Below, one piece after another: positions 375 to 64,000 of a stretch of DNA of 64,000 bases. Below the pieces are notes generated by a model. The model searched no databases, was not told the origin of the DNA, and worked only from the letters and a program-made list of their open reading frames with translations. Position 1 is the first letter of the stretch. Each line of letters begins with the position of its first letter. The translations under genes were made by a program, and so were the position numbers. The stretch spans positions 23,479-87,478 of the forward strand of contig JAUWEG010000001.1 of NCBI GenBank assembly GCA_030608385.1, written 5' to 3'. The DNA is from Candidatus Heimdallarchaeota archaeon (GTDB lineage: Archaea > Asgardarchaeota > Heimdallarchaeia > Heimdallarchaeales > Heimdallarchaeaceae).

Positions 375-794
375 ATGTCTCCATCAAAAGAATCAGATGC
401 TTCTGTCGCTGCAGGAGCTGACTTACTTCTAAAGGGTTGGAAAATGATCAATAAGGCATGCCCTGTTTGTGTAGAACCTCTTTATGAAAAAGATGGGAAA
501 GTCGTCTGTGTAAAATGTAAGAAAGAATATGTTCTGGTGGATTCAAAATCTGATATGCCCGTAACTAAAACATCAGGGGCTCAACAACAAGCAGCAAGTT
601 CTTCACCAAACAATTTCAGTTCATATGATTTCAGCTCTTTACCTCCTGCTCTAGCAGATACTGCTAAAATAATGCTGGAAAAAATAACCGACCTGAATGC
701 AAAATTAAAAGAATCATCGGATCCTAAAGAAATAGAAGAAATTTCTTCTTCAATTCGTTCTCTTATTGATTCTCTCCGTTCTCTGAGTTCCTAG
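375..794 (+). CDS. zinc-ribbon protein, UPF0148 / autoantigen-p27-like family
   Basis: CPVC-x13-CVKC zinc ribbon in the N-terminal half followed by a Ser-rich tail. The pattern resembles archaeal UPF0148 proteins. The 3' end overlaps the convergent Hef gene by about 30 nt. Confidence 0.5.
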   Translation: MSPSKESDASVAAGADLLLKGWKMINKACPVCVEPLYEKDGKVVCVKCKKEYVLVDSKSDMPVTKTSGAQQQAASSSPNNFSSYDFSSLPPALADTAKIMLEKITDLNAKLKESSDPKEIEEISSSIRSLIDSLRSLSS

Positions 795-32844: not shown

Positions 32845-34641
32845 ATGGGTTATGCTAGTATTACTTTTTTATTATTTGTTGCTTATATTCCCCTTATTTG
32901 GATAATTTTCCGTATAAGACAAAGAAGCAAAGGATTAGGATATTTCGCAGCAGTTGTTTTCTTAGTGCTGCTACTAGGAGTTTGGATAGTTGGATTTCTC
33001 AATCGTATAATAATGGTAGGAGCTATTGAACATTTAATTATAGTAGGATCAGTAACAACTCTTACTACGGTAATATTTGAACTAACGATTAGTAGGATTA
33101 ATCTCTTAGTTAGATTTAAAAGAAGAAGGGAAGCTCTCTTATCCATAGTTATCCTGATACTTCTAGTCATTGTAGGTGGTCAAACCCTGTTGGGTGTACG
33201 GAAAACAATGCTAAGCGCAAAATATTTTGAAAATACTGTCACATATGACGAAACAAATCTGCCTTTTCTTGTTTTCGATGAAGAAAATGAGATTGATAAT
33301 AACATAAGACTTGTTACTAAAGAATTTGCAATAAGCAAAGCTGAACAGAACAAAGCTGTGTTTGGTTCTAATGCAGTGCTGACAGAAGCTAATGTGATAT
33401 ATGTTAACGATTCTATATACTGGTGCATGATTTATGCACCGAAGAAATCTGCGCAAATATGGAGATCAGGACAATTTAACCTTGCTTGGGGATTGGTTTT
33501 AGTAGAGGTCAATAACCCAAATGCTGAACCTGTAATTATCAACTTTGTAAAAGGTGATTTCAATTATGCAGAAGGTCTATGGTATAATCATGATATTAAC
33601 TTGAAGAATTATCGACGTGATCAAAAGGCCAAATATTGGCGTTCTTATCCTGCATGGACCGGGACAGAGTGGGTATATATTGTTACACGATCAACTAGAA
33701 ACGTCTATGGTGCGTGGTTATCAGACGGTATCGATGTATTAGATATCAAGACCGGTGAAATAATCACTCATTATGCAGCTGATGAACTAGATACGACTCC
33801 CAAATATATTCTGCAGGTTTTTTCAGAAGATTTGATAGAATTAGAATGGATTATAAAATGGGGAAATAAGCGAGATACAACAGCAGATGGAAATATACGC
33901 TTATTGCCTGGATTTCCTCACTATAGTTCAGATAGACTTGGATTCTACGGAGAAGGTGTTGAAGACATCAGATATGTCAAATGTCAAAATTCAACTCTTG
34001 CTTTCTTCGCTACACATCCAAGAGATTCTTCAGAAACCTTAGCTGGAATTGGGATTATAAGGAAAAATGGAACAACATTCTATAACTTGAGAGAAAGAGG
34101 TTACATTTCTGCTGTCACAGCTTCAAAGTTAGCGGAAGGTCAACTTACAATCCCTAATGAGGGGAGTTACATTGTTCAGATGCCTGTACCTTATACTCTA
34201 AATACTTCAATAGGATTTAGGCTTGCTTGGTTTATCCCAATTTATTGGCAAAGTGGTACTGTGCAAAGATTATCTTATGTATGTGTGATTGATGCTTTAG
34301 ATTCTAGCTACATCTCTATAGCGGAGGCTGAAGGTTTATCAGGTTCTCAAGTAGTAAGAGAAGCGCGATTACAGTTCAAATCTTTCTTCGCTTCAGAAAT
34401 CCCTCAACAAGAGTACATAACAGCTGAAATTGATAATTTGGGTTCATATGTAGATGACGGAAATAGTATTTTTGTGTTCCAATTAAATAATTCAAAGATA
34501 ATTCGATGCTCACAGGGTTATCTCAATGAAACACATTGGAACCAAGTTGTTCTAGCTGAAATAGGAAATGTAATTCACTATACTTATACTGAAGATGATG
34601 ATGGAATTCTTTGGGCAACAGAATTTTTTGTTATTTCTTAA
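32845..34641 (+). CDS. membrane-anchored hypothetical protein (N-terminal 4 TM plus a roughly 450 aa extracytoplasmic domain)
   Basis: The N-terminal 120 aa are hydrophobic. The remainder is rich in W/Y/N/T with several NxS/T sequons. Confidence 0.4.
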   Translation: MGYASITFLLFVAYIPLIWIIFRIRQRSKGLGYFAAVVFLVLLLGVWIVGFLNRIIMVGAIEHLIIVGSVTTLTTVIFELTISRINLLVRFKRRREALLSIVILILLVIVGGQTLLGVRKTMLSAKYFENTVTYDETNLPFLVFDEENEIDNNIRLVTKEFAISKAEQNKAVFGSNAVLTEANVIYVNDSIYWCMIYAPKKSAQIWRSGQFNLAWGLVLVEVNNPNAEPVIINFVKGDFNYAEGLWYNHDINLKNYRRDQKAKYWRSYPAWTGTEWVYIVTRSTRNVYGAWLSDGIDVLDIKTGEIITHYAADELDTTPKYILQVFSEDLIELEWIIKWGNKRDTTADGNIRLLPGFPHYSSDRLGFYGEGVEDIRYVKCQNSTLAFFATHPRDSSETLAGIGIIRKNGTTFYNLRERGYISAVTASKLAEGQLTIPNEGSYIVQMPVPYTLNTSIGFRLAWFIPIYWQSGTVQRLSYVCVIDALDSSYISIAEAEGLSGSQVVREARLQFKSFFASEIPQQEYITAEIDNLGSYVDDGNSIFVFQLNNSKIIRCSQGYLNETHWNQVVLAEIGNVIHYTYTEDDDGILWATEFFVIS

Positions 34642-49349: not shown

Positions 49350-52184
49350 TTAACTAAACCAAGAATCAAGTGATTTTTGTCCTTCAATTGATTCTACCCA
49401 GGAAATACCTATGGTATCCAGAAGTTGTATTAAAGTAGATTTAAGTAGTTCTTTAACTTTAGGTATATCTACATCTGATTTTTCAGCCAATTGAATAGGT
49501 TTTACAGAGCATTCTTTGCTTTGGCTAATTTGATCTGAAAGCTTAATGGATTGAGCTTGAATCTTAAATGGTTTAGTTTTGATAAAACTAATCAAAGATC
49601 CTACAGTTGGTTTTTCACCATCAGGAAATGCTAACATAAGTTGAACTGCAGCTTGTAAAGGTTGAGTCCAACTATCATATTGCTCGATTTTCTTAGATAG
49701 AGTTACACTAATTGCTAGATCTTCAAGTTCAAAATTCCTTTTAGATATTTTTTGGTTAACAGCTTGTGTTATTCTTATTATCTTCTTCTTAGTTTCTTCT
49801 AATTCTTCCGGGGTTTGAACATCTGTTAAAATTTCTAATGATTTTTCAAATGGTCTTTTTGCTAAAATTGGCGTATTCTTCTTCCTACCCATCAAACCCT
49901 TTACTATTGGATATCCTTCAGTTGTGATTCCAAAGTAGTTTTTCTTTCTATCCGAAAGTCCACAATAACGGAATACATAATCGGTCCCTAATTCTATCTG
50001 AAAGGTTTCCATGCTCCATTTTTCCAATTCCTCGATGTTTTCGGGGGTTGGTTTGTGTATGAAAATACTATCTGTATCCCCATACAAAACCTGCAATCCT
50101 AATTTCTCTTCGCTATATTTCTTTGTTTTAGAAATTGCTTCTCGAGCAAGAGCCGCAGTTGACTCTGCCACAGGAGGGCAATACAAAGCAAAATTATCTG
50201 AACCAAAAACACCATAGGAGGCGTTAAGTAGTACTTTTAGAGAAGATTGTATGACATCACTAAGTTTTCTTTCTTCTTCGCTTAACGATGGATCTTTTGC
50301 TCTGTCTTTAAACCAGTAAACTCTGATATCCCTTATGAATCCAATTAGCATGGAACTTATACCCACATGCTTTTCACATATCCAGTGACTGGTTTCTGGT
50401 ATTTTGTTCTTCTTGCACTCAATATGATTACAATTCAAAGTTTCATACGATAGATTTCTAGTTTTTATGATGGAAGGATAGAGACTAGCAAAATCCATTA
50501 CATGAACATCCCACCATACACCAACTTGTGGATCTATTACAATTGCCCCTTGATACTTCTTTCCTTTAATGATGGCTTCAGTTGAAGTACCTCCCTTTAA
50601 TTGAAGAATATCCTCTCTCCTTGGGATTAAATAATTTCGGAATCTGTGTTCAAAATACATCCAATTCTGGATCCATATACTAATACTTGCTCGAGTAAAA
50701 TCATCTATTGGCATTTTTGTAATTCGAGAAAGCATTACTATTAAGTTAATTACTTGATCATTATTGAAACTGGTTAATTCAAAGGTTATTTCAGAATCTC
50801 TTCCATTGTATTCGATAAGTTCCTCCAAATCCAAGTCCCAAATATCTTTTTCATGTTTAAGTTTCTCCTTGCCTAGAATTGTTTTTCCAAGTTCATCAAG
50901 GGTTATTCTATCATAAACACCTCCAAATGCATAAATTCGAATGGCGGGTTGTCTAAAAAATCTATATAAATCGAGATGTATAGAGTGGGAAAGGAAAACG
51001 TTTTGAAATCTTGTTCGTACAAATGGATTCATCTTTTCATCAATTTCAAGTTTTTTCGCTCTATTATCTAGATACAAGAAATCAAAACCATCCCCATTAA
51101 ATGTAATAACGATAGGATATTTGCTCATTTCATCAAAAACTGCTAGAAGCAACTCTTTCTCATCATCAAACTCTTTAACCTTTACTGAAATTTTGCTTTG
51201 ATCTATTTGCTTTTTTTCTTCATTAAGCACAAAAACAGTGGTTTCTCTCTCTTCATTTGTTAAGCCTATTGAGATTACTTTCTGTAGGGCAGCATGAGGA
51301 TCAGGAATCTTGTTTTTTTCACTCTCAACTTCTATATCCACTGAACACCTGCTTATTTTAGGAATAGGGGCAAAGAATATGGGAAGATACTGCTCCACTA
51401 ATTGCAAAACTTCATGAGATTGTCCTTTAAAAATATCAAGTAAGTTGTCTTTAACTTCATTGGGTATTTTAGGTTCCACTCTTTGTAGTTTGTTGTTTTT
51501 AACTTCATAGAACAACCCAGGGACTAGTCCATTGTCATAGATATAATTCAAATGATATCTAATGTTAGCCTCAAAAGAGGGGCTGATTTTTTCCCTATAA
51601 CTATTATCTCTCCCCCCAATTGCTAGCGGATTTGTTGCAATTACCTTTGTTAGAGTTAATTCTTTTTCATTAAGTAGACTATATTTCTTAATAACCTCAC
51701 AACCGATAAACTCTTTTTCATTTGCAAGTTTTTTTTCTACTTCAGCTTTACTTACTGTAGTGAGCAAATATGGCAGGTGGTTTGTTGTATCATACCATCT
51801 GAAAACTTTACCTTGTTCTGGGTTGAACAGTTTTACATATGCCTTCTCTTTTTTACCATCATATTTTACATCAATAAGATAGGAAGAGGATAGATTTTCG
51901 GGAGCAAGATGAACATAACTGCTTCCCTTTTCTTCAAAGGATACCCCTTTCGATTTGTTAGCTGGTTTTTTATTTGTGTTTAGAAAAGCTCCTTTAGTTG
52001 AAGTTGATTCTTTATTGTCTCTTATGTTGATCTTTGAACTCAAATTTCCTTCTTTCTTTTTATCAGAATCTGCTTTGTTTGAATCTTGAATAAAACTCAT
52101 TAGACTTTTATGAGAATTTTTATTATCATTTTTCACGATAGATCTACCCATTCTTCTATTTTGATGCTCATCTCTAAATTGCAC
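49350..52184 (-). CDS. polB: family B DNA polymerase (PolB) with an N-terminal low-complexity extension and a C-terminal PIP box
   Basis: Pol motif A DFASLYPSII and motif C YGDTDSIF. Exonuclease blocks are present. The last residues QKSLDSWFS match the PIP-box Q-x2-L-x2-W-F. The first roughly 100 aa are K/S/N-rich. Confidence 0.9.
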   Translation of the reverse strand: MQFRDEHQNRRMGRSIVKNDNKNSHKSLMSFIQDSNKADSDKKKEGNLSSKINIRDNKESTSTKGAFLNTNKKPANKSKGVSFEEKGSSYVHLAPENLSSSYLIDVKYDGKKEKAYVKLFNPEQGKVFRWYDTTNHLPYLLTTVSKAEVEKKLANEKEFIGCEVIKKYSLLNEKELTLTKVIATNPLAIGGRDNSYREKISPSFEANIRYHLNYIYDNGLVPGLFYEVKNNKLQRVEPKIPNEVKDNLLDIFKGQSHEVLQLVEQYLPIFFAPIPKISRCSVDIEVESEKNKIPDPHAALQKVISIGLTNEERETTVFVLNEEKKQIDQSKISVKVKEFDDEKELLLAVFDEMSKYPIVITFNGDGFDFLYLDNRAKKLEIDEKMNPFVRTRFQNVFLSHSIHLDLYRFFRQPAIRIYAFGGVYDRITLDELGKTILGKEKLKHEKDIWDLDLEELIEYNGRDSEITFELTSFNNDQVINLIVMLSRITKMPIDDFTRASISIWIQNWMYFEHRFRNYLIPRREDILQLKGGTSTEAIIKGKKYQGAIVIDPQVGVWWDVHVMDFASLYPSIIKTRNLSYETLNCNHIECKKNKIPETSHWICEKHVGISSMLIGFIRDIRVYWFKDRAKDPSLSEEERKLSDVIQSSLKVLLNASYGVFGSDNFALYCPPVAESTAALAREAISKTKKYSEEKLGLQVLYGDTDSIFIHKPTPENIEELEKWSMETFQIELGTDYVFRYCGLSDRKKNYFGITTEGYPIVKGLMGRKKNTPILAKRPFEKSLEILTDVQTPEELEETKKKIIRITQAVNQKISKRNFELEDLAISVTLSKKIEQYDSWTQPLQAAVQLMLAFPDGEKPTVGSLISFIKTKPFKIQAQSIKLSDQISQSKECSVKPIQLAEKSDVDIPKVKELLKSTLIQLLDTIGISWVESIEGQKSLDSWFS

Positions 52185-53253: not shown

Positions 53254-54267
53254 GTGATTATAGTGTCAGATATACTTCAGGAAATACTAAAGAGCGGGGC
53301 GATATTGGTTATTGATCCAACAGTCATTCAGACAAATCCTGATGATTTTTTGGATCATTATGGACATATGGTGGATGCCATATCATTGGTTGCAAAGGGA
53401 AGATCTGGTTTTACTTTCTACCAAAGCAATAGTGCTCCAAAAGATAAAACAAACGGTGTCTTCTTTCATTCATTTTGTACAATTGCAGATAATATGGGGA
53501 TAAAAGTGGATGCAGTTACTTATGTTCATGGGGATAGTTTTCTTTCTCAAAACACTGATTTTCAACTAAGTAGTAGCGATGGGGCTACTATTGCCTCATA
53601 TTCTTGTCCAAGCCAAGAAAGTATGGTAAAATATTCAGCAGCTATAGCATTAGAAATAGCTCATTACCCAATAGAAAGTTTGGTATTAGACGATTTGATG
53701 TTGGCAAGTAAAAGAACTTGTTTCTGTGATAGATGCAGGAGATTATTTGCGAGCAAGTGGAATATTGAAAGAGATTTCAGTTTTGAATATCTTGAATCCA
53801 GAGACCTATTGGAAAATTGGAATGATGAAAGGTCTACTTACATTAATCAAACATTAAGAGAAATTACAGATACTGTGAAAAACCTAAAGAACATCGATAT
53901 TTCTTTTGTATTAAAAGCTGATAAAGAAACTGGTTTTATTACTGGAGCTAATGAGTTCTTTGGTCAAAATATCACAGAATTGGCAAAGATTACAAACAAT
54001 ATAATCATCCATGTGAATCCATGGAGTGAATCTTTTCCTGCTAAAAAAAGTCCTGAGTATCAACATCTGGTAAGTTCATTTTCTATATTAAGTGATTATT
54101 CTCGATCAGGGATAAAGCCATCTCTATATTTCTGGAACATTGATTCGAAGGAAAAACTTGATGTTGCTATTCAGCTGAAAAATGATTTAAAAGTCGATAA
54201 AGTTTATTTAGAGCCTTCATTACCTCATGATTTCACTAAACGAAGAACAATTAATTTAGGGTTTTAA
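53254..54267 (+). CDS. hypothetical protein with a CxCxxC motif (337 aa)
   Basis: Intact ORF containing TCFCDRCRR. First gene of a tight three-gene unit. Confidence 0.4.
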   Translation: MIIVSDILQEILKSGAILVIDPTVIQTNPDDFLDHYGHMVDAISLVAKGRSGFTFYQSNSAPKDKTNGVFFHSFCTIADNMGIKVDAVTYVHGDSFLSQNTDFQLSSSDGATIASYSCPSQESMVKYSAAIALEIAHYPIESLVLDDLMLASKRTCFCDRCRRLFASKWNIERDFSFEYLESRDLLENWNDERSTYINQTLREITDTVKNLKNIDISFVLKADKETGFITGANEFFGQNITELAKITNNIIIHVNPWSESFPAKKSPEYQHLVSSFSILSDYSRSGIKPSLYFWNIDSKEKLDVAIQLKNDLKVDKVYLEPSLPHDFTKRRTINLGF

Positions 54268-54269
54268 AA

Positions 54270-55679
54270 ATGAGTCTTGAGAAAGCAATTGAAGAAATTA
54301 AAACAATGTTTTGGGGCGTTCTAAAGGGTAAGTTCAACCCAGAAGAAGAGGAGGATGTTAAAACACATCTTATAACAAACTTGGCTACTCTTTCCTCATA
54401 TGTTAAAACCTGTTTACCTCCAGAGCAACAAAAAGAGTACGAAAAACATTTTTCAACTGCTAAGGATATTCTTCTGAAATTCGACAGTGCAGGACCTTGG
54501 TTTAGAGAATTACCTGAAATGATTGATACAGTTTACAATGTAATAACATATGCAAATATGCTACAAATAGAATATCATAGATTCAGTGGTACTGAAAATG
54601 ATACATTACAGTTCATTAATGCAAAACTTGAAACGTTAGAGCTTAACATTAATTCTATTCGTGAAGAAACAAAAAAGCTGAAACAACAAACAACAGCCTT
54701 GTTACAGCTCCAAAGAAGCAACATTCAAATTACAGAAATTGAACCATCAAAACAGATTCCTATAAAGCAAAACGAGGAAAAAAACCAAGACGATTCTGAT
54801 GTTCAAGTTTTTGAAGAACTTATTGAAGCTGAAATAGAAAAGCCTGAAGTTGAGGAAACTAAAGAACAAGAAATTATTGAAGAAGTTGAATTGGATTCTG
54901 TACCGGTGGATTCTGCTCCTTTGGATGATATTTCAGAAGCAACTGAGCAATCTGAAAAGGATTTGATGGATGATGCTAAAGACTTGATTGAAGGTATTGA
55001 GATTGCTTCCCAATATGAATTTGAGCACGAACCCTTTATGCAAAATATTGAAACAGAGCAAGAAGCTTTGAAGGAGTTAGCAGGTTTGTTAACTGCCTTG
55101 GATCCGGGAGATGATTCAGTTATTTCTCCATTAACAGAAAAACTAATATCAATTAGTGATAAAGAAGGAAAAATTACACTTCCAAGCACCCCTTCAATTG
55201 AAGAAAGTGTGATAAGTGAAGAAGGATTAAGTGAGAAAGAAATTGCTGAAGTCCATGAATTTCGTTCTTCTATATCTAGATTAAATCAAGTTTTATCGTC
55301 ACCCAAGCAGAGAGAAACAGCTGCTGATTTTGTATCCTCAATAAAGGAAACGATAGCACATGTATCCAAGGAAAAAGATTTCGAAACAGAAGAAAAGAAA
55401 TCTGCATTAACTAAAATTATTGAAGCAGAAGCTGGGGAAGCAGATAAAACCCCTATACAATTCGAAGATATTGAGAATGTTATCAAACACCTCGGAACCC
55501 GAAGACAAAAGGCCATAGAGAGAATCCAACAATTAGAACATGCTCTAAATTCGGAGAAAATCGATGAAGAGGAATGGCAAGAACTCAGAATTAAAGCAGA
55601 AAGGCATATGTTGAGAGTTGAAGACACTCTAGATGGATACAAGCGATACTTGGCAAAATTACAAAGTCAATCTAATTAG
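54270..55679 (+). CDS. acidic coiled-coil protein (469 aa)
   Basis: Helical N-terminal domain, a long E/D-rich low-complexity centre and a C-terminal coiled coil. Confidence 0.4.
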   Translation: MSLEKAIEEIKTMFWGVLKGKFNPEEEEDVKTHLITNLATLSSYVKTCLPPEQQKEYEKHFSTAKDILLKFDSAGPWFRELPEMIDTVYNVITYANMLQIEYHRFSGTENDTLQFINAKLETLELNINSIREETKKLKQQTTALLQLQRSNIQITEIEPSKQIPIKQNEEKNQDDSDVQVFEELIEAEIEKPEVEETKEQEIIEEVELDSVPVDSAPLDDISEATEQSEKDLMDDAKDLIEGIEIASQYEFEHEPFMQNIETEQEALKELAGLLTALDPGDDSVISPLTEKLISISDKEGKITLPSTPSIEESVISEEGLSEKEIAEVHEFRSSISRLNQVLSSPKQRETAADFVSSIKETIAHVSKEKDFETEEKKSALTKIIEAEAGEADKTPIQFEDIENVIKHLGTRRQKAIERIQQLEHALNSEKIDEEEWQELRIKAERHMLRVEDTLDGYKRYLAKLQSQSN

Positions 55680-55686
55680 TAAGTAG

Positions 55687-56121
55687 ATGTTTATGACTGA
55701 TCTTTACTTAACCCATTACTATTTTGGTGTGAGAGAAGGAGCTTTTCATACTGGATTAGGATCAATCTTAAGAGCAAAAGGGCACTCAAAACCTGTATCG
55801 GTAATCATTATTGATAATTCTTTTACTTGGATTCCGGATTTAGAGCTAGAAGACTCTATTCCATATGTAATAATTAGATCTAATGAGACAGTGAATAATG
55901 TTCGGAACACTTTATTTGATACATTAAGTGTTTTGAAAAATGCTGTATGTTTAATTGTAAATTTCGATTTATTAATTACTAATGAAATTTTATCTCTTCA
56001 GGATCTCTTACAGATTATTCGAGATATTAATAACTCAAATGAATATATCTTTACATCAGAAGATTATTTCAAAGAACTTGAGGAATACGCAGATTATGTT
56101 AGTTCTATTAAGGAGCTTTGA
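55687..56121 (+). CDS. hypothetical protein, possibly a P-loop-less CobA-like paralogue
   Basis: Weak similarity in residue spacing to the N-terminal and central blocks of the CobA at 45088..45597, but without the GKGKT lysine. Confidence 0.3.
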   Translation: MFMTDLYLTHYYFGVREGAFHTGLGSILRAKGHSKPVSVIIIDNSFTWIPDLELEDSIPYVIIRSNETVNNVRNTLFDTLSVLKNAVCLIVNFDLLITNEILSLQDLLQIIRDINNSNEYIFTSEDYFKELEEYADYVSSIKEL

Positions 56122-56920
56122 AACATAAATCTGCTGCAATATGTGCAATTTTTGGACCTAGCCATCTAATCAATCTTATATCTGCAATAGTATAGTTCTT
56201 AAAGAAATTGTATGAATGAGCGATGCTATTAATTCTGCCAATAATTATTTCTTCACCTATCTCTTTTGAGCTTATTCTTTCTGTAATTTGCCAATGAATA
56301 ACTCCTCTTCCGTCTTTCAAAGCTTGATAAGCTATTGGAAGAGCTTTGTCTGAATCTAGAGGTAAAGGAAGCAAAACCCTATTTACACTGTTGATAAACA
56401 TTTTTGGAACAATCTCAAAAGCGTCTCCGAAATAAGGAATAACTTTTTCCTGACATTTGTTTAGTTCAATATTTTTGAGAAGATAATTATATGCTGTTTT
56501 GTTTATTTCAATACTATGAACAACACATGAATTGCATTTAGATGCTAAAGCTATACTAAACGGACCAACTCCTGAAAAGAAATTCAGAATTATCTCATTT
56601 TCTTCAATCAAATTAGTAATTCGTTGTCTTTCGTAACTCAAGCGAGGAGAGAAAAATACTTCAGATAGATCTACTAAGAATGAATTTCCGTGCTCTTTGT
56701 GAATTGTTTCTGATTTGTTTTTTCCCATAACATACTTGAGCTTTCTTTTTCTCTCTTGTCCATGGATTTTGGAGGTTTGAAGCAATACTGTTTTAATAAA
56801 AGAGTGCTTTTGGATTTTTTCTTCTGCAAAGCTTTTCAAAGAAATTTCATCAGAATCATCTCTGATGATCAATATATCTCCAATTATCTCAAATGCTAGA
56901 TCCTTCATTCTTCTCTCCAA
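56108..56920 (-). CDS. Trm5/TYW2-family tRNA methyltransferase (short, Taw2-like)
   Basis: FSPRLSYERQRI, NFFSGVGPFSIALA (motif I) and LPLP (NPPY-equivalent) blocks. 270 aa. Confidence 0.7.
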   Translation of the reverse strand: MERRMKDLAFEIIGDILIIRDDSDEISLKSFAEEKIQKHSFIKTVLLQTSKIHGQERKRKLKYVMGKNKSETIHKEHGNSFLVDLSEVFFSPRLSYERQRITNLIEENEIILNFFSGVGPFSIALASKCNSCVVHSIEINKTAYNYLLKNIELNKCQEKVIPYFGDAFEIVPKMFINSVNRVLLPLPLDSDKALPIAYQALKDGRGVIHWQITERISSKEIGEEIIIGRINSIAHSYNFFKNYTIADIRLIRWLGPKIAHIAADLCFKAP

Positions 56921-56928
56921 TCAACATC

Positions 56929-59070
56929 CTACTTAATTTCTCTAATTGATGGTCCTTTGTAAGTAGCTTTATCAAACGCAATCCTTCTCATCTGAGTTTG
57001 AGTATTAATCTCCTCAAAATAATGTGCAGCCAGTCCCGCTGTTCTTCCAAATACAAAAATGACTTTTGCAAGTTTTGGGTCTAATCCCATGTCAGCTGTA
57101 ATCGCTGCAATAACCCCATCTACATTAATTGGGAGGTTCATTCCTCGCACGCGATGGAAAGTGCTACTAATCATTTTTGAAACATCAACACAGCTCTTTG
57201 CATATCCTGCGTCTTCTGCAAGTTTCCATAAAACATCTCTTCTAGGATCTTGTGTATGAATACGGTGACCTAAACCTTCAATTCTTTTGCCGGTTTTGAT
57301 TGTTTCACTTATCAATTTGAAGGTGGATTCATCGAGTTCCAATTTTTCTTTTTCAGCTTTTTCAACAACTGATAAGAAGAACTTAGCAGCCATTTGTCCT
57401 GCACCACCATGAACATCAGTAATTGCTTGTAAACCTCCAGCTACAGCTACTTCATAATTTGCTCTAGTAGAAGCTAGGATTATTGTTGCTTGAGCAGATG
57501 GTGGTGTGATTCCGTGATCTACACAAGCAATAATCATTGCTTCTAACAGCTTAACTTTAAGCGTGTCTGAGTTTTTTTCTTTTACCAATCCTAGATATAT
57601 CATTTCTGAGAATGATGTTTCAGAAACTGAAGAAGATTCTAGTTGATCTAAATTGCCTAGAATATATGCAAAATACTTCAAAACTCTTCCCAATGTGTAA
57701 GCTACGATTTTTGTTTCTTCAGAATTCAATCTTACAAAATCTGCAAGTTTATTATCGACCAACATCAATGTTCCAAGGGTTTTAGATATGTCTGAACTTA
57801 TGGTAATCGATTTAAGGTCTGTGAATTCTTGTTTTATTGCTTTTTTTGCAGTATCCTCAAGCTCTTTAAGTTGAGCTTCTTCAGGGAACTCTCCTTTAAG
57901 GAGTAAATATGACGTTTCCAGAAATCCTTTCTTTGCTATAATTTCTTGTAAAGGATATCCTCGAATTATCAAGTTGTTTGGCATTACATTAGTTACTAAA
58001 GTCCCCCAAGTTTTTACTGGTGGTCTAGCATCCCATTTTTTACTCATTTTTGAGTAATATTTTTCAATATCAAAATATGTTCGATTTAGTTTTGACCTTA
58101 CAGCATCAATTAAATCTCTTTGGTGGTTTACCACAGTTACTCCAGCTTTTTCCAAAGATTCCTTCTTTGATTGATAAGTACCATAACTTTGCCCAGGAGA
58201 AATTACAGCTCCTGCATGACCCATGGTTTTTCCTTCAGGAGCATTGGCCCCTGATATTAATGCAACTAGAGGCTTTTGATATTTTTCTGGATTTGCTTTC
58301 ATATCTTGAGCTAGCAATTCTTCCTGCATTCCACCAATTTCACCAGCGATAACAACTAAATCTGTGTGCTCGTATCGCATTATTCTTGATACAAGATCTA
58401 TAAAACGAGAACCAATAGCTCCATCTCCCCCTACACCCAATACTCCATTTTGAGCAATTCCTGCACTAGCTAGTGCATCAGATAAATGATATAGAATAGC
58501 TCCACTTCGAGATAAAATCGTCACTCCTTTGGGACCGATTTTGTTATCGGTTTTCTGAGCCTGAAAAATATCTGGTAGCATACCTACTTTTATTCCTTCT
58601 GGAGGAAATATTATTCCTGGTGTGTTACCGCCAAATAAGATTGTTTTATGTTTTCTAGCTTCAACTAGAATGTCTCTTACATCCTTAAGAGGAATGAATT
58701 CTGAAATTAGAACAACAATAGGAATTCCTGATCTAATAACTTCAATTGTAGCATCTTTAGCAGAAGAATAATGTTTCCATATACTTGCTACAGCTATGTC
58801 CGGGTGTTTCTTTTTTGCTACCTCAGCAGATTCATAAACAGGAACAGTTTCATGAACATATGTACCACCTTTGCCTGGTGCTACTCCACATGTAACATTG
58901 GTTCCATATTCCATCATAAGTTGCGCGTGTCGAGTTCCTTGTCTTCCTAATCCTACAATCATTGTTTCGATTGTTTTCTTTTCCGATATTTTCTGAGCGA
59001 GTTCAGGACGAATGTGTTTGATAAGATAATTAAGAAGTCCTTGATCCACGGCTAATTTATCAGTTGTCAT
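56929..59070 (-). CDS. aclA: ATP-citrate lyase large subunit (SucD-like CoA-binding/phosphohistidine domain fused to a citrate-synthase-like domain)
   Basis: N-terminal CoA-binding Rossmann fold. Phosphohistidine motif TMGHAGA. C-terminal roughly 280 aa with citrate-synthase-fold blocks. 4-nt overlap with the upstream ATP-grasp subunit. Confidence 0.8.
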   Translation of the reverse strand: MTTDKLAVDQGLLNYLIKHIRPELAQKISEKKTIETMIVGLGRQGTRHAQLMMEYGTNVTCGVAPGKGGTYVHETVPVYESAEVAKKKHPDIAVASIWKHYSSAKDATIEVIRSGIPIVVLISEFIPLKDVRDILVEARKHKTILFGGNTPGIIFPPEGIKVGMLPDIFQAQKTDNKIGPKGVTILSRSGAILYHLSDALASAGIAQNGVLGVGGDGAIGSRFIDLVSRIMRYEHTDLVVIAGEIGGMQEELLAQDMKANPEKYQKPLVALISGANAPEGKTMGHAGAVISPGQSYGTYQSKKESLEKAGVTVVNHQRDLIDAVRSKLNRTYFDIEKYYSKMSKKWDARPPVKTWGTLVTNVMPNNLIIRGYPLQEIIAKKGFLETSYLLLKGEFPEEAQLKELEDTAKKAIKQEFTDLKSITISSDISKTLGTLMLVDNKLADFVRLNSEETKIVAYTLGRVLKYFAYILGNLDQLESSSVSETSFSEMIYLGLVKEKNSDTLKVKLLEAMIIACVDHGITPPSAQATIILASTRANYEVAVAGGLQAITDVHGGAGQMAAKFFLSVVEKAEKEKLELDESTFKLISETIKTGKRIEGLGHRIHTQDPRRDVLWKLAEDAGYAKSCVDVSKMISSTFHRVRGMNLPINVDGVIAAITADMGLDPKLAKVIFVFGRTAGLAAHYFEEINTQTQMRRIAFDKATYKGPSIREIK

Positions 59071-60383
59071 TTAATACCCTCCATGTTCTCACTTTGCTTT
59101 TTCACTTTAAACCCATATTCAATTCCATCTTTAATGACATCCGCCATTATCTTTTGATTTCCAACAACAATGTGTAAGTCTATTAATGGTTCTGGAGTTT
59201 CTAGCTTAGCTTTCTCAAGGAAAGCTTTTGCAGCTGCTAAATCAGTTCCAACCATTCGACCATAAACCGGTATCATTCTTTTCTTAGCAATGAATCTATC
59301 TCTTAATGACATAATCAATCCTTGAATGAAGACATCACAACTGGATATCCCCCCAAAACGACTAGTTATGATCAGATCTGTTGCAGGATGATCCATTAGA
59401 AGGTGGAACATATCTGCAACCTTACTTATTGAAGGACCACCACCACTATCCATGAAATTTATGGGAATAACCTTGCCATTGAAATATCGATTTCCAACAT
59501 TAACAATTTCATCTACAGAAAAAATTCCATATCCTGCTCCTCCTGGAACAAGACCTACATACAGTTTTTCTTCATCTTTCATAAAATTCTCTGGATTCTC
59601 AAGTAAATCAATGAACGGAAAGCCTATTTGATATGCTTTTGCTTCAAAAGCTGTTTGCTCTGAAACATCGTGCCTTTTACTTCTGGGATCTATCCCAATT
59701 GATTTCAGCAAAGGTGTTTGCCTGTACAAACTGTTATCATCAAGTACAAATTTCGCATCAGCAGCAATTATATCTCCTTTCTTTGTTACAATTAGGGGGT
59801 TTATTTCACAGATTTTTGCTTCTGCACCCTGAAAAGCCAAATAGAGAGATTCAATAGTTTGTTGAAGTTTTTCACTTACTAGTTGGAGATTTTGATTTTT
59901 ATCTACTAGAAAATCAGTAGCTTTTTTTCCTATTTCAGCATTCAAAGATTTATCATTATTTCTTAGTACTTTCTTCCATATTTCATCTGGTTTAGTTCGA
60001 GCAACTTCTTCAATATCAACACCACCACTTGCAGATGTCACCAATACTATATCAAAAGTTGCAGGATCAGTGGTTATGCACAAGTAGATTTCACTAGCAA
60101 TATCGACTGCTTCCTCAAGTAAAATTTTCTTTATAGGATAACCATGAATTGTTAAGTTCAACATTTCTTTTATGATGCTCTCTGTTTCCTCAATAGTTTC
60201 AGCTTTCTTTATTCCTCCTGCTTTTCCCCTTCCTCCAATCAAAATCATAGCTTTAATCATAATAGGAAATTCTAAAGATATATCTACTAAATCTTCAATA
60301 CGTTCTATTATTGCTATTTGTTTAGGAATTTTAAGGTTAAACTGTTCAAAAATCTGCTTTGCCTCATATTCGTATAATTTCAT
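59067..60383 (-). CDS. aclB: ATP-citrate lyase small subunit (SucC-like ATP-grasp)
   Basis: MKLYEYEAKQIF N-terminus typical of the succinyl-CoA synthetase beta / ACL ATP-grasp subunit. Confidence 0.8.
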   Translation of the reverse strand: MKLYEYEAKQIFEQFNLKIPKQIAIIERIEDLVDISLEFPIMIKAMILIGGRGKAGGIKKAETIEETESIIKEMLNLTIHGYPIKKILLEEAVDIASEIYLCITTDPATFDIVLVTSASGGVDIEEVARTKPDEIWKKVLRNNDKSLNAEIGKKATDFLVDKNQNLQLVSEKLQQTIESLYLAFQGAEAKICEINPLIVTKKGDIIAADAKFVLDDNSLYRQTPLLKSIGIDPRSKRHDVSEQTAFEAKAYQIGFPFIDLLENPENFMKDEEKLYVGLVPGGAGYGIFSVDEIVNVGNRYFNGKVIPINFMDSGGGPSISKVADMFHLLMDHPATDLIITSRFGGISSCDVFIQGLIMSLRDRFIAKKRMIPVYGRMVGTDLAAAKAFLEKAKLETPEPLIDLHIVVGNQKIMADVIKDGIEYGFKVKKQSENMEGIK

Positions 60384-60393
60384 TTTTATCCCT

Positions 60394-62253
60394 CTAGTTT
60401 GAATATTGTTTTTGATAATATTTGATAAGCCCTCCAGCTGTAAATATTTCTAGTAATTCACTTGGTAGTTTTGGGAAAGAATAAACTTGACTTCCATTTG
60501 TAATTTGGCCTTTTTCTAAGTCAACTGTTGTTTGCTGATTTCTATCAAATTTATCAATGAACTCTTGATGTACAATGATTGGTAATCCCTGATTAATTGC
60601 AGATCTATAAAAGATTCGAGATACTGATTTTACAATAACAGCTTTAACACCTGCAGCTGCAAGCCCTACGGCTGGATGTTCTCTTGATGATCCACATCCA
60701 AAATTTTCTCCACCTATTACAATATCCCCTTCCTTAACTCTAGCTGCAAAAGTTTCATCTAAGCCTTTGAATAGATGTGGAACTATTTTATCCCCCTCTG
60801 AAGACTTAATGTCGTATGTAAGATCTCCAGCAAACATCTGATCTGTGTTGAAATCATCAACATCACTATAATCCCAAACATACATGCTGTATCTATCGTC
60901 TTTAGAGTCTATTTCAAGGGTTTTAGTTTCTACATCTCTATATTGTAGCACTATTTCAGTTTCCTCTCTTATGGCTCCAGATGACAGATATTTTCTGGGG
61001 TCTGTAATTTTTCCTTCAATTGCAGAAGCTGTTATTGTAGCTGGAGATGCTAAAAATATACGTGTATTTTTATTCCCCATTCTTCCCAGAAAATTCCTGT
61101 TTGCAGTAGATAAAACATTCCAATCGTCAGCTGGTATTCCTTGTCCCTTGCCTAAGCAAGGACCACAACTGCATGAAAGTATTGTTGCCCCTGCTTCAAC
61201 AAGTGTTTGAATAACTCCCCTCTCTAAAGCTTCAAGATAGATTTTGTTTGAAGCTGGAGCTACAAGAAATATTACCCCATTTTTCACTTTTTTATCTTTG
61301 ATTATTTTCGCAGCAATTTCTAAATCATCTAATCTGGCATTTGTACAAGTTCCAAGAAAAGCTTGATGAATGGGGGTTTCTTCTAGTTTTTTGGCAAATT
61401 GTGTATTATCTACTTGATGTGGAACCGCAACTAAAGGTTCCAATTTGCTTAAATCTAGAATGATTTCTCTGTTAAAAATTGCATCTTTGTCTGACCAGAA
61501 TGGTTTTTCTTGCGGACTTCCAAATGAATGATGCTTTTCCTTTAACCAATTAATTAAGACTTTATCATGTGGAAAAATAGCTGTTTTAGCACCCATCTCT
61601 GAAGCTAGGTTTGCTAGTGTCATTCTTTCAGATATAGATAAATTTTCTACGCCTTTTCCATGAAACTCAATCGCATAATATGTTGCCCCTGCAGCACCTA
61701 TTTTATTCATTAGCCATAAAGCAATATCCTTTGCATAAACACCCAAAGGCAATTTTCCATTTAGAACAATTTTAATTGTTTCAGGAACTCTAAACCAAGT
61801 CTTTCCTGTTAACCACAATCCTGCTGTTTCTGTTCTATCAATTCCTGCTGCAAATGTTGCAAATGCACCACTTGTGCATGTATGAGAATCTGACCCAACA
61901 ATGAGCATATTGGGTGAAGCATGGTTGGACATCAATTGGTGGCAGATTCCCTTCCCTTCATCATAGAAATTAGTGATATTCTGCTTTTTAACTAACTCTC
62001 TTATACTTTTATGATCATTTGCTATCTTAGCACTCGTTGGAGGGGAATCATGATCCAAGACAATTACAAGACGTTCAGGAAATTTGATTTTTGTTCCACC
62101 CATTTTTTGAAAAGTTTTTTCTATTGATGCTGAATTGTCGTGTGACAAAATTAAATCAGGTTCTGCATAAACTATATCGCCAGCTTTCACATCTGTATTT
62201 GACTTAAACGAAAAGAGTTTTTCTGAAAATGTTTTACCATTCATATATCCCAC
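60394..62253 (-). CDS. aconitase-family dehydratase, fused large (LeuC-like) and small (LeuD-like) subunits
   Basis: GSDSHTCTSGAFATFA, GTCTNARLDD and SCSCGPC Fe-S ligand blocks in the first roughly 420 aa. A LeuD-like swivel domain (GENFGCGSSREH) in the last roughly 190 aa. Confidence 0.75.
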   Translation of the reverse strand: MGYMNGKTFSEKLFSFKSNTDVKAGDIVYAEPDLILSHDNSASIEKTFQKMGGTKIKFPERLVIVLDHDSPPTSAKIANDHKSIRELVKKQNITNFYDEGKGICHQLMSNHASPNMLIVGSDSHTCTSGAFATFAAGIDRTETAGLWLTGKTWFRVPETIKIVLNGKLPLGVYAKDIALWLMNKIGAAGATYYAIEFHGKGVENLSISERMTLANLASEMGAKTAIFPHDKVLINWLKEKHHSFGSPQEKPFWSDKDAIFNREIILDLSKLEPLVAVPHQVDNTQFAKKLEETPIHQAFLGTCTNARLDDLEIAAKIIKDKKVKNGVIFLVAPASNKIYLEALERGVIQTLVEAGATILSCSCGPCLGKGQGIPADDWNVLSTANRNFLGRMGNKNTRIFLASPATITASAIEGKITDPRKYLSSGAIREETEIVLQYRDVETKTLEIDSKDDRYSMYVWDYSDVDDFNTDQMFAGDLTYDIKSSEGDKIVPHLFKGLDETFAARVKEGDIVIGGENFGCGSSREHPAVGLAAAGVKAVIVKSVSRIFYRSAINQGLPIIVHQEFIDKFDRNQQTTVDLEKGQITNGSQVYSFPKLPSELLEIFTAGGLIKYYQKQYSN

Positions 62254-62256
62254 TTT

Positions 62257-62763
62257 TTACATTATTTCTCCAAGTTTTAAAAGACCACCAGCTTTTATTA
62301 TATCTAATACTGGTTGAGGTATTTTAACGCATTTAATGGTCTCCCCATTATTTTGGTTGATAATTAATGATTGAGTTATGTCTATTTCTAGATCATCATC
62401 TTCTTTAACCTTGAATTCAGATATTCCTGGTACTTCAACAAGGAGTAAACCTGAATTTACAGAATTACTATAATAAATTGGTCCAAAAGATTCACCAACT
62501 ATTGCTGTGATTCCATGAGCTATAAATCCTGTTACAGCTTGTTGTCTTGTGGATCCTTTACCGAAATTTTTACCAACCAATAATATTTTCCCAACATTGT
62601 CTTCCTTTCCAAAACTCTTATACCCTTCAAGATTTCCGAAAATATGCGGTTTTATTTCATTGGGGTCATGAATTGTTAGTAAGGATTGATGAAATATTTG
62701 GTCGGTATCAACGTCATCTACTATGACTAGCTTTGCTTTTGCTTTGATTGTTTCTTTGCTCAT
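62257..62763 (-). CDS. 3-isopropylmalate/homoaconitate dehydratase small subunit (LeuD-like)
   Basis: GKNFGKGSTRQQA block. 168 aa. 4-nt overlap with the upstream large subunit. Confidence 0.8.
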   Translation of the reverse strand: MSKETIKAKAKLVIVDDVDTDQIFHQSLLTIHDPNEIKPHIFGNLEGYKSFGKEDNVGKILLVGKNFGKGSTRQQAVTGFIAHGITAIVGESFGPIYYSNSVNSGLLLVEVPGISEFKVKEDDDLEIDITQSLIINQNNGETIKCVKIPQPVLDIIKAGGLLKLGEIM

Positions 62764-64000
62764 CTCTTAACCACCTCTTTAGGAGCAGCAATTTTTCCTT
62801 CAATTGCTGTAGCTGCGGCTACTACAGGACTAGCTAAATAAACATCCGCGGGACCAATTTTGCCTTGGGTGTTTCTGTTTCCTGTTGTTAAAGTTACAGC
62901 TGTTTCACCCCCGGTTAAGCCATATTGTCCATTTGCGCAGGTTGAACAACCTGCACCAAAGAAGTTTCCACCAGATTCTAGAATTATTGTCATATCGCCA
63001 TTTAGATTGATTGAAACGAAATCCTCTCTAGTAGCAGGAACTATTCCAAATCTCACATCTGGGTTGATTTTGTGTCCCTTTAGTATCTTTGCAACATCAT
63101 GAATATCAGCTGAACTTCCATTTGTACAAGAACCAATAATAATAGAATTTATGGGAGTACCAATTACTTCCTCAATTTTTTTGACATTATGTGGATGTGG
63201 AGGACATGCGATGTATTGGCCTAAATCTTGAATATCTAAGACTAGTTCTGAGACGTATCTTGCATCTTCATCAGCGGATAACATTTCTATCTCGATTCCA
63301 ATCTCGGAGTAATAATCAGCTGTAATTTTATCATCAGGTACAAATCCAATAACGCCTGAAGCTTCTGTAATCAGAGAACATAAAGTGACTCTTTCTTCAA
63401 TTGATAGCTTGTCAATAATCTCACCATAGAATTCAACAGCTTTTCCTGTAATTCCATATTCATGAAGTTCTTTAAGAACATAAAGAGCTAAATCTTTTGC
63501 TGTTGTTGGCCACTCATAATCTCCCTTTAAGATAACTTTTACAGTTTCAGGAATTTTTATCCATGATTTTCCTGTTTTTAAAGCAAAAGCAAGCATGACA
63601 TCTCCTGCTCCTTGCCCTAAGATTCCTAAAGCTCCAAGAATATTATAATGGCTATCAGCTCCAATAGCTATATCTCCTGGTTTTGAAAAACCTCTTCGAA
63701 ACAATAGATGAGAACCTATACCTGATCCGAGATCAGTTACCTTGATTCCATGTTCTTTGGCAAATACACGAATTTTTTCTTGATCTTTAGCATGTTTTGG
63801 ATCATTGCCATAAGGATAACAGTCTGGAGTAAAGATAATTTTTTCATTGTTGAATGTTTTAGAACCAGTATAATTTTTTTGAAATAGATCTATGACTTGA
63901 GGTCCTGCATAATCTCTTGCCGTAACCAAATCAAGATTAACCCATACTATGTTGTTTGGATAAATCTCATCATCTGAAACATCTGTACGATTTCTAATGA
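62760..64000 (-). CDS. aconitase-family dehydratase large subunit (LeuC-like), 5' end truncated by the window edge
   Basis: GADSHYNILGA, GSCTNGSSAD and GAGCSTCANG ligand blocks. The reading frame stays open upstream of the track's TTG start all the way to position 64000, and the upstream residues (IVWVNLDLVTARDYAGP) match the LeuC N-terminal region. The gene therefore starts beyond the window. Confidence 0.8.
   Translation of the reverse strand, partial: IRNRTDVSDDEIYPNNIVWVNLDLVTARDYAGPQVIDLFQKNYTGSKTFNNEKIIFTPDCYPYGNDPKHAKDQEKIRVFAKEHGIKVTDLGSGIGSHLLFRRGFSKPGDIAIGADSHYNILGALGILGQGAGDVMLAFALKTGKSWIKIPETVKVILKGDYEWPTTAKDLALYVLKELHEYGITGKAVEFYGEIIDKLSIEERVTLCSLITEASGVIGFVPDDKITADYYSEIGIEIEMLSADEDARYVSELVLDIQDLGQYIACPPHPHNVKKIEEVIGTPINSIIIGSCTNGSSADIHDVAKILKGHKINPDVRFGIVPATREDFVSINLNGDMTIILESGGNFFGAGCSTCANGQYGLTGGETAVTLTTGNRNTQGKIGPADVYLASPVVAAATAIEGKIAAPKEVVKR

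Follow-up and report, generated by a model that had tools for sequence, protein, structure and literature searches.

Positions 56108 to 64000 of a 64,000-nucleotide stretch of a Candidatus Heimdallarchaeota contig (JAUWEG010000001.1, positions 23,479 to 87,478 of the forward strand; assembly GCA_030608385.1), referred to here as the window, contain six open reading frames (ORFs) on the minus strand. They encode two sets of LeuCD-type dehydratases of the aconitase family, a two-subunit enzyme predicted to act on citrate, and a protein resembling tRNA methyltransferases. The junctions between consecutive ORFs are -4, +3, +10, -4, and +8 nt, which bears out the preliminary description of this stretch as six genes at these coordinates with gaps of 10 nt or less. 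Matches of the encoded proteins to Pfam and NCBIfam families (E = 1e-15 to 1e-148) are far past chance. In the order of transcription, the ORFs are as follows, with the dehydratases assigned to two clades, A and B, that are compared below.

62760 to 64000 and beyond, minus strand: LeuC-like protein, clade-A large subunit, partial at the 5' end with the frame open up to the window edge
62257 to 62763, minus strand: LeuD-like protein, clade-A small subunit, 168 aa
60394 to 62253, minus strand: fused LeuC-LeuD hydro-lyase of clade B, 619 aa
59067 to 60383, minus strand: SucC-like/ATP-grasp protein, beta subunit, 438 aa
56929 to 59070, minus strand: SucD-like CoA-binding/ligase protein with a citrate-synthase-fold domain, alpha subunit, 713 aa
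56108 to 56920, minus strand: TRM5/TYW2 methyltransferase, 270 aa

The block is conserved beyond this contig. An independent assembly (L001) holds an identical LeuD and the same neighbours, and the closest homologues, with 96-99% identity, are labelled Candidatus Heimdallarchaeota. The same block is present in L002, L014, L004, L005 (Hodarchaeales), and L006 (LC_3), where the fused protein is 76, 71, 68, 65, and 59% identical, respectively, to that of the window. Upstream of the block, all five loci encode a dehydrogenase of the Iso_dh family (∼377 aa), and L002, L014, L004, and L006 also encode a small HD-domain protein (∼187 aa); the L005 contig begins inside the Iso_dh gene. The conserved unit in Heimdallarchaeia consists of seven genes, encoding HD, Iso_dh, LeuC, LeuD, fused LeuCD, the SucC-like protein, and the SucD-like protein fused to citryl-CoA lyase (SucD::CCL), and the window holds the distal two-thirds of this operon, cut inside LeuC. 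The LeuC-like ORF, which has a TTG start in the window, is partial, as had been recognized earlier; since its NCBIfam match begins at profile position 29, approximately 10 N-terminal residues, or 10 codons, are missing. In LC_3, a 2-oxoacid:ferredoxin oxidoreductase is located directly upstream of the block. A scan for sigma-70 promoters and intrinsic terminators returned no more matches than expected from shuffled sequence, the sigma-70 model being uninformative for an archaeon.

The six ORFs had been proposed to form one gene unit. The order of its core genes is indeed conserved across Heimdallarchaeia and the genes in the window belong to it, but the unit extends further upstream with the Iso_dh and HD genes, and the Trm5-like gene is no conserved member. 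The Trm5-like ORF contains the PF02475 catalytic domain (125 bits against a Pfam cutoff of 28) and reaches no NCBIfam equivalog level for Taw21, Trm5b, or Taw2; it is assigned to the Taw2/Taw21/Trm5b-like family of tRNA methyltransferases. Only 8 nt separate it from the alpha-subunit gene, with which it probably shares a transcript in this genome. The gene is placed outside the conserved unit because this adjacency is lineage-specific, being shared solely by the two closest relatives (L002 and L014); no such gene is found at that position in L004, L005, L006, or the non-Heimdall loci.

The pair of genes named aclB and aclA in the preliminary description does not encode a type I ATP-citrate lyase (ACL), an identity that is rejected on the absence of a citrate-binding domain and on the greater similarity of both subunits to succinyl-CoA synthetase (SCS) than to ACL. 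The beta subunit has the SucC/CcsA architecture, with ATP-grasp_2 and a SucC-type C-terminal Ligase_CoA domain, and gives no match to Citrate_bind in Pfam; PF24948 scores 48.8 bits, under its cutoff of 83. Against the PDB it scores 174.5 bits with SCS-beta, 76.6 bits with Hydrogenobacter CcsA, and 41.8 bits with Chlorobium AclB (6hxj_A), the last match being confined to the ATP-grasp part. The alpha subunit contains CoA_binding, Ligase_CoA, and Citrate_synt domains (Pfam). Its SucD-like CoA-binding/phosphohistidine module (aa ∼35-330, with the GHAGA His285 at codon 58216-58218 of the minus strand) is most similar to SCS-alpha (182 bits), followed by AclA (6hxj_B, 110 bits) and CcsB (103 bits). 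The C-terminal domain of the citryl-CoA-lyase/citrate-synthase fold (aa ∼350-713; 56932-58023, minus strand) is closest to the H. thermophilus citryl-CoA lyase (CCL; 6hxp, 120 bits), with citrate synthases at 62 bits or less.

An alignment of 13 SucD::CCL sequences from Heimdall-, Loki-, Sif-, Odin-, and Hermod-archaea, Thermoplasmata, 'Euryarchaeota', and Bipolaricaulia reveals that the GHAGA His285, DH519, GH602R, and D651 are invariant. All 13 keep the phospho-His loop, the citrate-synthase His/His/Asp residues, and the DPR/Arg residues that bind oxaloacetate. Judged from sequence, the supposed ACL is an SCS-like ligase with a predicted citryl-CoA-lyase domain fused to the alpha subunit. 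In domain architecture it corresponds to a CcsB-CCL fusion, like the 'type II' ACL described in the literature. Type II ACL, a ccsB-ccl fusion, has been postulated for Magnetococcus, Leptospirillum, and some Planctomycetes. ACL homologues had previously been described from Asgard archaea; neither their occurrence there nor the concept of a fused citryl-CoA synthetase (CCS) and CCL is new.

As for the H. thermophilus CCS and CCL and for type II ACL, a two-step ATP-dependent cleavage is expected, carried out by an SCS-like heterodimer and a small lyase of the citrate-synthase fold, and the fusion of the lyase onto the alpha subunit is shared with type II ACL. In contrast with Hydrogenobacter CcsA/CcsB, the Heimdall ligase is nearer to true SCS (174 versus 77 bits and 182 versus 103 bits for the two subunits), and unlike CCS/CCL and type II ACL, its operon adds LeuCD-type dehydratases, Iso_dh, and the HD protein. 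The Heimdall enzyme is expected to catalyze the same overall chemistry as type I ACL (Chlorobium AclBA, Methanothrix ACL, and eukaryotic ACLY) and has the same alpha domain order of CoA-binding, ligase, and CCL; it differs in its beta subunit, which ends in a Ligase_CoA domain of the SucC type and lacks the domain for citrate binding. In an uncultured bacterium (L012:4675-6408), ordinary SucC and SucD, 30% and 39% identical to the cluster genes, are encoded directly downstream of an SCS-like::CCL pair; because the two coexist there, the SucC-like and SucD::CCL proteins of the cluster constitute a distinct paralogue.

The split dehydratase departs from the canonical residues at several active-site positions of the aconitase superfamily. 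Active-site residues were mapped onto pig mitochondrial aconitase (mAcn), the sequence of which was checked residue by residue against the PDB. The differences are the following.

mAcn position 72: canonical Gln or His; Arg in clade A (codon 63915-63917 in the window)
mAcn position 101: canonical His; Cys in clade A (codon 63819-63821 in the window), Leu in three bacterial loci
mAcn position 147: canonical His; Ser, Thr, or Gln in clade A (Ser in the window)
mAcn position 148: canonical Gln; His in clade A, as in the window
mAcn position 258: canonical Asn; Ser in clade A, as in the window
mAcn position 452: canonical Arg; Lys in clade A, as in the window

The classical catalytic set of Asp100-His101, His147, Asn258, and Arg452 is accordingly incomplete in the split enzyme, where His147 is shifted; the enzyme keeps D100, D165-S166-H167, E262, the three Fe-S cysteines, N446, and R447. 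In the aconitase mechanism, Ser642 acts as the base, and the leaving hydroxyl is protonated by His101 (PMC8184944). The histidine that distinguishes AcnA/iron regulatory protein (IRP), AcnB, and mitochondrial aconitase from clade A is the latter, His101; the equivalents of Ser642 and Arg644 are retained in the clade-A small subunit (GSTRQ). The substrate loop of this subunit, located by PDB alignments to 3vba and 2pkp together with a loop alignment, reads DTDQIFHQSLLTIHDP and is neither of the HacB (YLRT) nor of the LeuD (YLVY) type. The large subunit scores under every NCBIfam cutoff (336 versus 385 bits for PRK00402, with the sequence being partial). Heimdallarchaeial orthologues share 60-84% identity with it, and beyond these the identity does not exceed 45%. 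Among the best 150 matches in a search of 1.84 billion representative proteins, ∼15-18 bear the clade-A signature and 111 keep the canonical Asp100-His101-His147; since so few of the best matches bear its signature, clade A appears as a small, sharply bounded subfamily. No description of this active-site variant was found in the literature searched, and a 2026 genome survey of the reductive tricarboxylic acid (TCA) cycle recognized AcnA and AcnB alone, with His101 as a defining residue of aconitase A. Clade A would add to a textbook Fe-S family a catalytic variant without the histidine that is regarded as the general acid.

The fused protein is composed of a large domain (aa ∼1-430) and a small domain (aa ∼455-619); relatives of 616-617 aa suggest that the true start is an ATG three codons further in. 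In contrast with the split enzyme, it carries the classical catalytic set, and all 18 scored mAcn active-site positions in its large domain are identical to those of M. jannaschii HacA/LeuC. The small-domain loop is NTDQMFAGDLTYDIKSS, in which a conserved Lys is located within a three-residue insertion. At the small-subunit specificity position, the fused enzyme has Tyr and the split enzyme Thr, in place of the Val/Met of LeuD (YLV[YM]) or the Arg of HacB; the alignment of these loops with Arg580 of aconitase is ambiguous. The hallmarks of the superfamily, namely the three Cys ligands, D165-S166-H167, R447, and Ser642/Arg644, are kept in both sets.

Neither set attains the score of a curated equivalog for isopropylmalate isomerase (IPMI), homoaconitase (HACN), or aconitase. 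The fused protein passes subfamily-level models only (PRK00402, 493 bits; hacA_fam, 482 bits). Against LEU2 (TIGR02083, cutoff 610.65), the fused and split proteins score 408 and 276 bits; the corresponding values are 123 and 97 bits for leud (TIGR02084, cutoff 245.85), 420 and 258 bits for HacA_Meth (NF040615, cutoff 550), and 114 and 98 bits for HacB_Meth (NF040604, cutoff 230). The score of the fused protein against the aconitase model PRK07229 is 390 bits, with a cutoff of 612. A comparison of specificity residues had been suggested as a means of refuting an aconitase function; the idea survives this comparison, because the residues match neither the IPMI nor the HACN pattern.

The two large subunits in the window are ∼29% identical, and a neighbour-joining tree and identity matrix separate the two clades. 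Clade A comprises the split pairs of the window, Loki-archaea, and Borr-archaea, as well as a form of ∼600 aa in Eubacteriales and others that became fused independently. Clade B comprises the fused enzyme of the window, fused proteins of Bacteroidales and WOR-3 (57% identical), split bacterial pairs, and both HacA and LeuC of M. jannaschii. A recent duplication as the origin of the two sets is rejected on the basis of their low identity and their different deep clades. Their co-occurrence in one operon, remarked upon earlier as unusual, is a real and conserved feature, but the two are deep paralogues rather than fused and split versions of one enzyme. The large-small fusion of clade A (∼600-637 aa; Eubacteriales, Stahlbacteria, and other bacteria; L013:6617-8686, P0220-P0240, and P0362-P0364) has its own origin, so the fusions in clades A and B arose separately.

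Among characterized enzymes, clade B is most readily compared with the M. jannaschii isopropylmalate/citramalate isomerase (MJ0499/MJ1277) and homoaconitase (MJ1003/MJ1271), with which it shares the scored active-site residues, 42-43% identity over the large domain, and a group in the tree. It differs from them in being a single chain, in the Thr-Tyr and Lys-bearing insertion of its loop in place of the LeuD Val-Tyr or HacB Arg-Thr, in falling below both equivalog cutoffs, and in having citrate enzymes rather than LeuA/AksA as partners. Classical aconitases and the PRK07229/TIGR01342 proteins share with the window enzymes the superfamily, the Fe-S ligands, and the Ser base, and the fused enzyme has the PRK07229 domain order of large followed by swivel domain; the scores, in contrast, are far under all cutoffs.

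The genomic context of the two clades was surveyed in two ways. The first set consists of 15 SucD::CCL loci (the window, L002, and L004-L016), in which aconitase-family genes were counted within 10 kb. A scan of genome contigs with the SucD::CCL alignment gave seven true relatives among the 80 loci listed; one of its two patterns, GKTMGHAG, is generic for SucD. An aconitase-family pair or fusion is present in 12 of the 15, a PrpD gene instead in one, and neither in two. Both clades accompany SucD::CCL in Heimdallarchaeia, clade A alone does so in Loki, Borrarchaeum, and Eubacteriales, and clade B alone in three bacterial loci. The PrpD-family dehydratase gene follows the fusion in one Bipolaricaulia locus. 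Neighbours of the tricarboxylic acid cycle type are present upstream in two loci, namely the oxidoreductase of LC_3 noted above and, in Bipolaricaulia, genes with domains of the succinate dehydrogenase/fumarate reductase type (FAD_binding_2, Fer4, and CCG). In a bacterial metagenome-assembled genome (L091), the order is HD, clade B, Iso_dh, clade A, and no ACL gene is located in the vicinity. In a Lokiarchaeal locus (L007:9388-10208), the SucC-like and SucD::CCL genes are separated by a HEPN/nucleotidyltransferase toxin-antitoxin pair.

The second set was drawn from a metagenome collection with a DNA pattern for clade A made of two motifs, G-[IV]-G-x-H and D-S-H-x-N-[IL]-[LV]-G, separated by 17 residues. 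At least 120 stretches matched and 80 loci were listed; the counts given here are of loci that were not de-replicated. A clade-A large subunit is encoded in 79 of the 80. Arg72 is present in 68 of 68 and Lys452 in 66 of 66 readable sequences, and position 101, readable in 56, is occupied by C, L, I, T, V, or Y and never by His. The mapped neighbours of clade A are all on the same strand. Recurrent orders are Iso_dh-HD-A-B(-CitDE-CitF), HD-A-B-Iso_dh-CitDE-CitF, HD-CitF-CCL-A, CCL-HD-B-Iso_dh-A, SucD-CCL-HD-A-B, and A-CitDE-CitF. Of the 38 loci that extend 2.5 kb or more downstream, 15 have clade B immediately after clade A; of the 39 that extend 2 kb or more upstream, 20 have HD and/or Iso_dh ahead of clade A. 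A citrate-cleaving gene is encoded on the same strand in 18 of 79 clade-A loci, many contigs being shorter than 3 kb. These genes belong to three unrelated citrate-cleaving systems: SucC/SucD with CCL, fused or not (SucD and a short CCL are unfused in L167 and L168), CitF with a short CCL, and CitD-CitE with CitF. Pfam confirms the short CCL (Citrate_synt), CitF, and a protein with ACP and HpcH_HpaI domains as a CitD-CitE fusion. Unbiased clustering of the neighbouring ORFs detected no LeuA-, CimA-, homocitrate-synthase-, or LysW-type family among those that recur in at least two of the 80 loci, and the Asgard loci examined contain none of the genes for LeuA, CimA, homocitrate synthase, or the LysW pathway. 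Two of the contigs, L134 (HD, A, B, Iso_dh, CitD-CitE, and CitF) and L113, are from human-gut metagenomes, and hence the module is not limited to exotic habitats.

The two upstream genes of the operon are located beyond the window end in this genome and are known from its relatives. Iso_dh contains the substrate helix S-P-I-V-x-L-R in eight loci, to be compared with the isocitrate dehydrogenase (IDH) motif S-x-N-V-x-L-R (Ser113/Asn115); an Arg of one sequence in this helix is not conserved among the others. Its scores are 319 bits for AksF2 (cutoff 540), 303 bits for LEU3_arch (410), and 264 bits for the IDH model PRK08997 (510). The HD-domain protein (L002:6418-6981; 170-187 aa) is also encoded in L004, L006, L007, L008, L010, L011, L013, L014, L015, L091, L092, and 30 of the 79 metagenome loci, and it accompanies the dehydratase/Iso_dh/citrate-lyase module across Archaea and Bacteria. 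Its conserved motifs are PE..I, G.W, PFTLL, H, HDVGK, RHP, HS.EG, and DF, and it displays the H...HD...H...H...D ligand pattern of binuclear HD enzymes. In the PDB and NCBIfam it has marginal matches only (Cas10 HD and TmpB oxygenase) and no curated family.

On balance, the operon probably specifies the enzymes of a self-contained route that connects 2-oxoglutarate with acetyl-CoA and oxaloacetate. Direct observations are the gene content and its conservation, the patterns of residues, and the associations in the genomes; from them, we infer substrates, direction of flux, and division of labour. Iso_dh would interconvert 2-oxoglutarate plus CO2 and isocitrate, the two LeuCD-type [4Fe-4S] hydro-lyases would jointly provide the aconitase step through isocitrate, cis-aconitate, and citrate, and the SCS-like ligase with its fused citryl-CoA lyase would cleave citrate in an ATP-dependent manner via citryl-CoA or, in reverse, synthesize citrate with a yield of ATP. 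The best reading of the dehydratases, and the part of the preliminary description that is best supported, is that LeuCD-type enzymes act on citrate and aconitate and so may supply the aconitase function of a citrate/isocitrate/2-oxoglutarate module. Citrate is the simplest common denominator, because three unrelated citrate-cleaving systems adjoin the same dehydratase/Iso_dh/HD module. Since clades A and B are often co-transcribed and their catalytic residues are very different, with a classical acid/base set in the fused enzyme and a rewired one in the split enzyme, the two are probably not redundant. One hydro-lyase may serve citrate/cis-aconitate and the other cis-aconitate/isocitrate, and Arg72 of clade A could stand in for the domain-4 arginine with which aconitase binds the third carboxylate. 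The association of the module with citrate lyases, which favour cleavage, suggests a flux in which 2-oxoglutarate, for example from glutamate, is converted to citrate by way of reductive carboxylation and the citrate is then cleaved to oxaloacetate and either acetyl-CoA or acetate; the reverse direction, an ATP-yielding synthesis of citrate, is conceivable with the ATP-dependent enzyme.

Division of one isomerization between two dehydratases has precedents. That of 2-methylcitrate is split between PrpD (or AcnD/PrpF) and, subsequently, AcnB. In fungi, the isomerization of homocitrate is divided between aconitase and homoaconitase (PMC3556520). The proposed system resembles both in the use of two dehydratases for the isomerization of one hydroxy-acid, but it differs in that both partners are of the LeuCD type, one of them is without His101, the likely substrate is citrate, and the division of labour is a proposed one.

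Several observations weigh against this interpretation. The ligase subunits resemble SCS above any characterized citrate-activating enzyme. Iso_dh keeps the Ser of IDH but has Ile-Val in place of Asn-Val and is equally similar to isopropylmalate dehydrogenase (IPMDH), and its top curated models, all under cutoff, are homoisocitrate and isopropylmalate dehydrogenases. The fused clade-B gene of Bacteroidales stands alone, with no citrate-related or informative neighbours, and the metagenome counts overstate independence because the loci were not de-replicated. Published reconstructions describe the Heimdall TCA cycle as 'complete' with the aconitase gene unspecified, and a canonical aconitase may be encoded elsewhere in the genome; among the 20 largest ORFs scanned in the other 56 kb of the window, there is no AcnA/AcnB, icd, gltA, or leuA. 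One Heimdall genome has an ACL-like pair without LeuCD nearby. In this genome (CP070760, closed, 3.16 Mb; L009:8718-13710), the SucC-like/SucD::CCL pair, which also lacks Iso_dh and HD nearby, abuts a CitF gene (citrate CoA-transferase) on the opposite strand, followed by a 2-oxoacid oxidoreductase and beta-oxidation genes.

The two hydro-lyase sets could instead be complete, redundant aconitases, that is, isozymes that differ in properties such as oxygen tolerance or kinetics in the manner of AcnA and AcnB. The retention of the superfamily hallmarks in both sets is compatible with such a role, and the lineages with a single clade beside citrate-cleaving genes suggest that either suffices, although the partner in these genomes may be located elsewhere. 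A back-to-back arrangement of A and B in 15 of 38 informative metagenome loci, in Heimdallarchaeia, and in bacterium L091 is unlike that of condition-specific isozymes, and clade A is without His101; we regard redundancy as unlikely.

Alternatively, Iso_dh and the split LeuC/LeuD, perhaps with the fused enzyme, could be genes for amino-acid biosynthesis that merely adjoin citrate-lyase genes. They would then encode an isopropylmalate or citramalate isomerase and dehydrogenase for leucine/isoleucine, or the homoaconitase and homoisocitrate dehydrogenase of the alpha-aminoadipate route to lysine, for which a requirement for two enzymes of the aconitase family is known. The best curated and PDB matches of Iso_dh and the resemblance of its Ile-Val to the hydrophobic pocket of IPMDH point in this direction, as do the grouping of clade B with M. 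jannaschii HacA/LeuC and the two-enzyme precedent for homocitrate. The recurrent neighbours, however, are three kinds of citrate-cleaving enzymes and HD, with none of the biosynthetic genes named above among the families that recur in at least two of the 80 clade-A loci or in the Asgard loci examined, all equivalog cutoffs are missed, and the small-subunit loops have neither the LeuD Val nor the HacB Arg. The extra active-site Arg of clade A would also fit a tricarboxylate better than an alkyl-malate. A biosynthetic role is, on this evidence, improbable.

Very improbable is an action of SCS-like::CCL on another acyl-CoA such as 2-methylcitryl-CoA of a propionate route, with dehydratases acting on 2-methylcitrate or 2-methylisocitrate: the higher scores of the ligase subunits against SCS than against CCS or ACL, the NCBI name of the fusion ('citrate/2-methylcitrate synthase'), and the PrpD-family gene in Bipolaricaulia are outweighed by the absence of PrpB/2-methylisocitrate lyase from every locus examined, the lack of a methylcitrate-cycle role for an Iso_dh-family dehydrogenase, the replacement of the SCS-like enzyme by citrate-specific CitDEF and CitF beside the same module elsewhere, and the coexistence of ordinary SucCD in L012, which indicates distinct paralogues.

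With an aconitase function of the LeuCD-type enzymes as the preferred interpretation, a broader proposal can be put forward only tentatively and is itself rather doubtful: aconitase activity split over clades A and B, together with Iso_dh and HD, might constitute a widespread anaerobic 'citrate shunt' that uses interchangeable citrate-cleaving systems to link 2-oxoglutarate to acetyl-CoA/acetate plus oxaloacetate. If so, Heimdallarchaeia would possess, encoded in one operon, an equivalent of the eukaryotic cytosolic IDH1-ACO1-ACLY route, and the shunt could serve as a redox-neutral fermentation of glutamate. An operon with the predicted functions of IDH, aconitase, and citrate lyase in the archaea most closely related to eukaryotes is relevant to the production or consumption of acetyl-CoA by the host lineage, with the provision that the enzymes are not of the eukaryotic types. 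Reconstructions of the TCA cycle in Asgard archaea and many uncultured anaerobes look for AcnA/AcnB and Chlorobium-type ACL. If LeuCD-type enzymes perform the aconitase step and an SCS-like::CCL fusion cleaves citrate, such reconstructions misread both steps, since they name the genes after leucine or coenzyme-B enzymes or call them 'succinyl-CoA ligase'. The literature searched contains no description of this operon or of a LeuCD-type aconitase linked to citrate lyases, and the chance that the cluster hides a genuinely new enzyme function is moderately high.

Other genes in the window include a few of separate interest. A Hef-like protein of 829 aa (763-3252, minus strand) combines a DEAD/Helicase_C helicase with an ERCC4 nuclease and HhH motifs, as in the XPF/Hef type. 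A 393-aa protein (27126-28307, plus strand) consists nearly entirely of C2H2 zinc fingers in many repeats (Pfam zf-C2H2, 146 bits), forming a eukaryote-like array. The family-B DNA polymerase (49350-52184, minus strand; 944 aa) has an N-terminal extension of ∼100 aa that is of low complexity and rich in Lys, Ser, and Asn, and its neighbourhood, which encodes a PCC-domain protein, two unannotated proteins, and a CobA-like protein, is syntenic in L002. Three ORFs of 337, 469, and 598 aa (53254-55679 and 32845-34641, plus strand) have no Pfam match; the 469-aa product is highly acidic and of low complexity, and the 337- and 469-aa ORFs have unannotated counterparts of the same size in L002.

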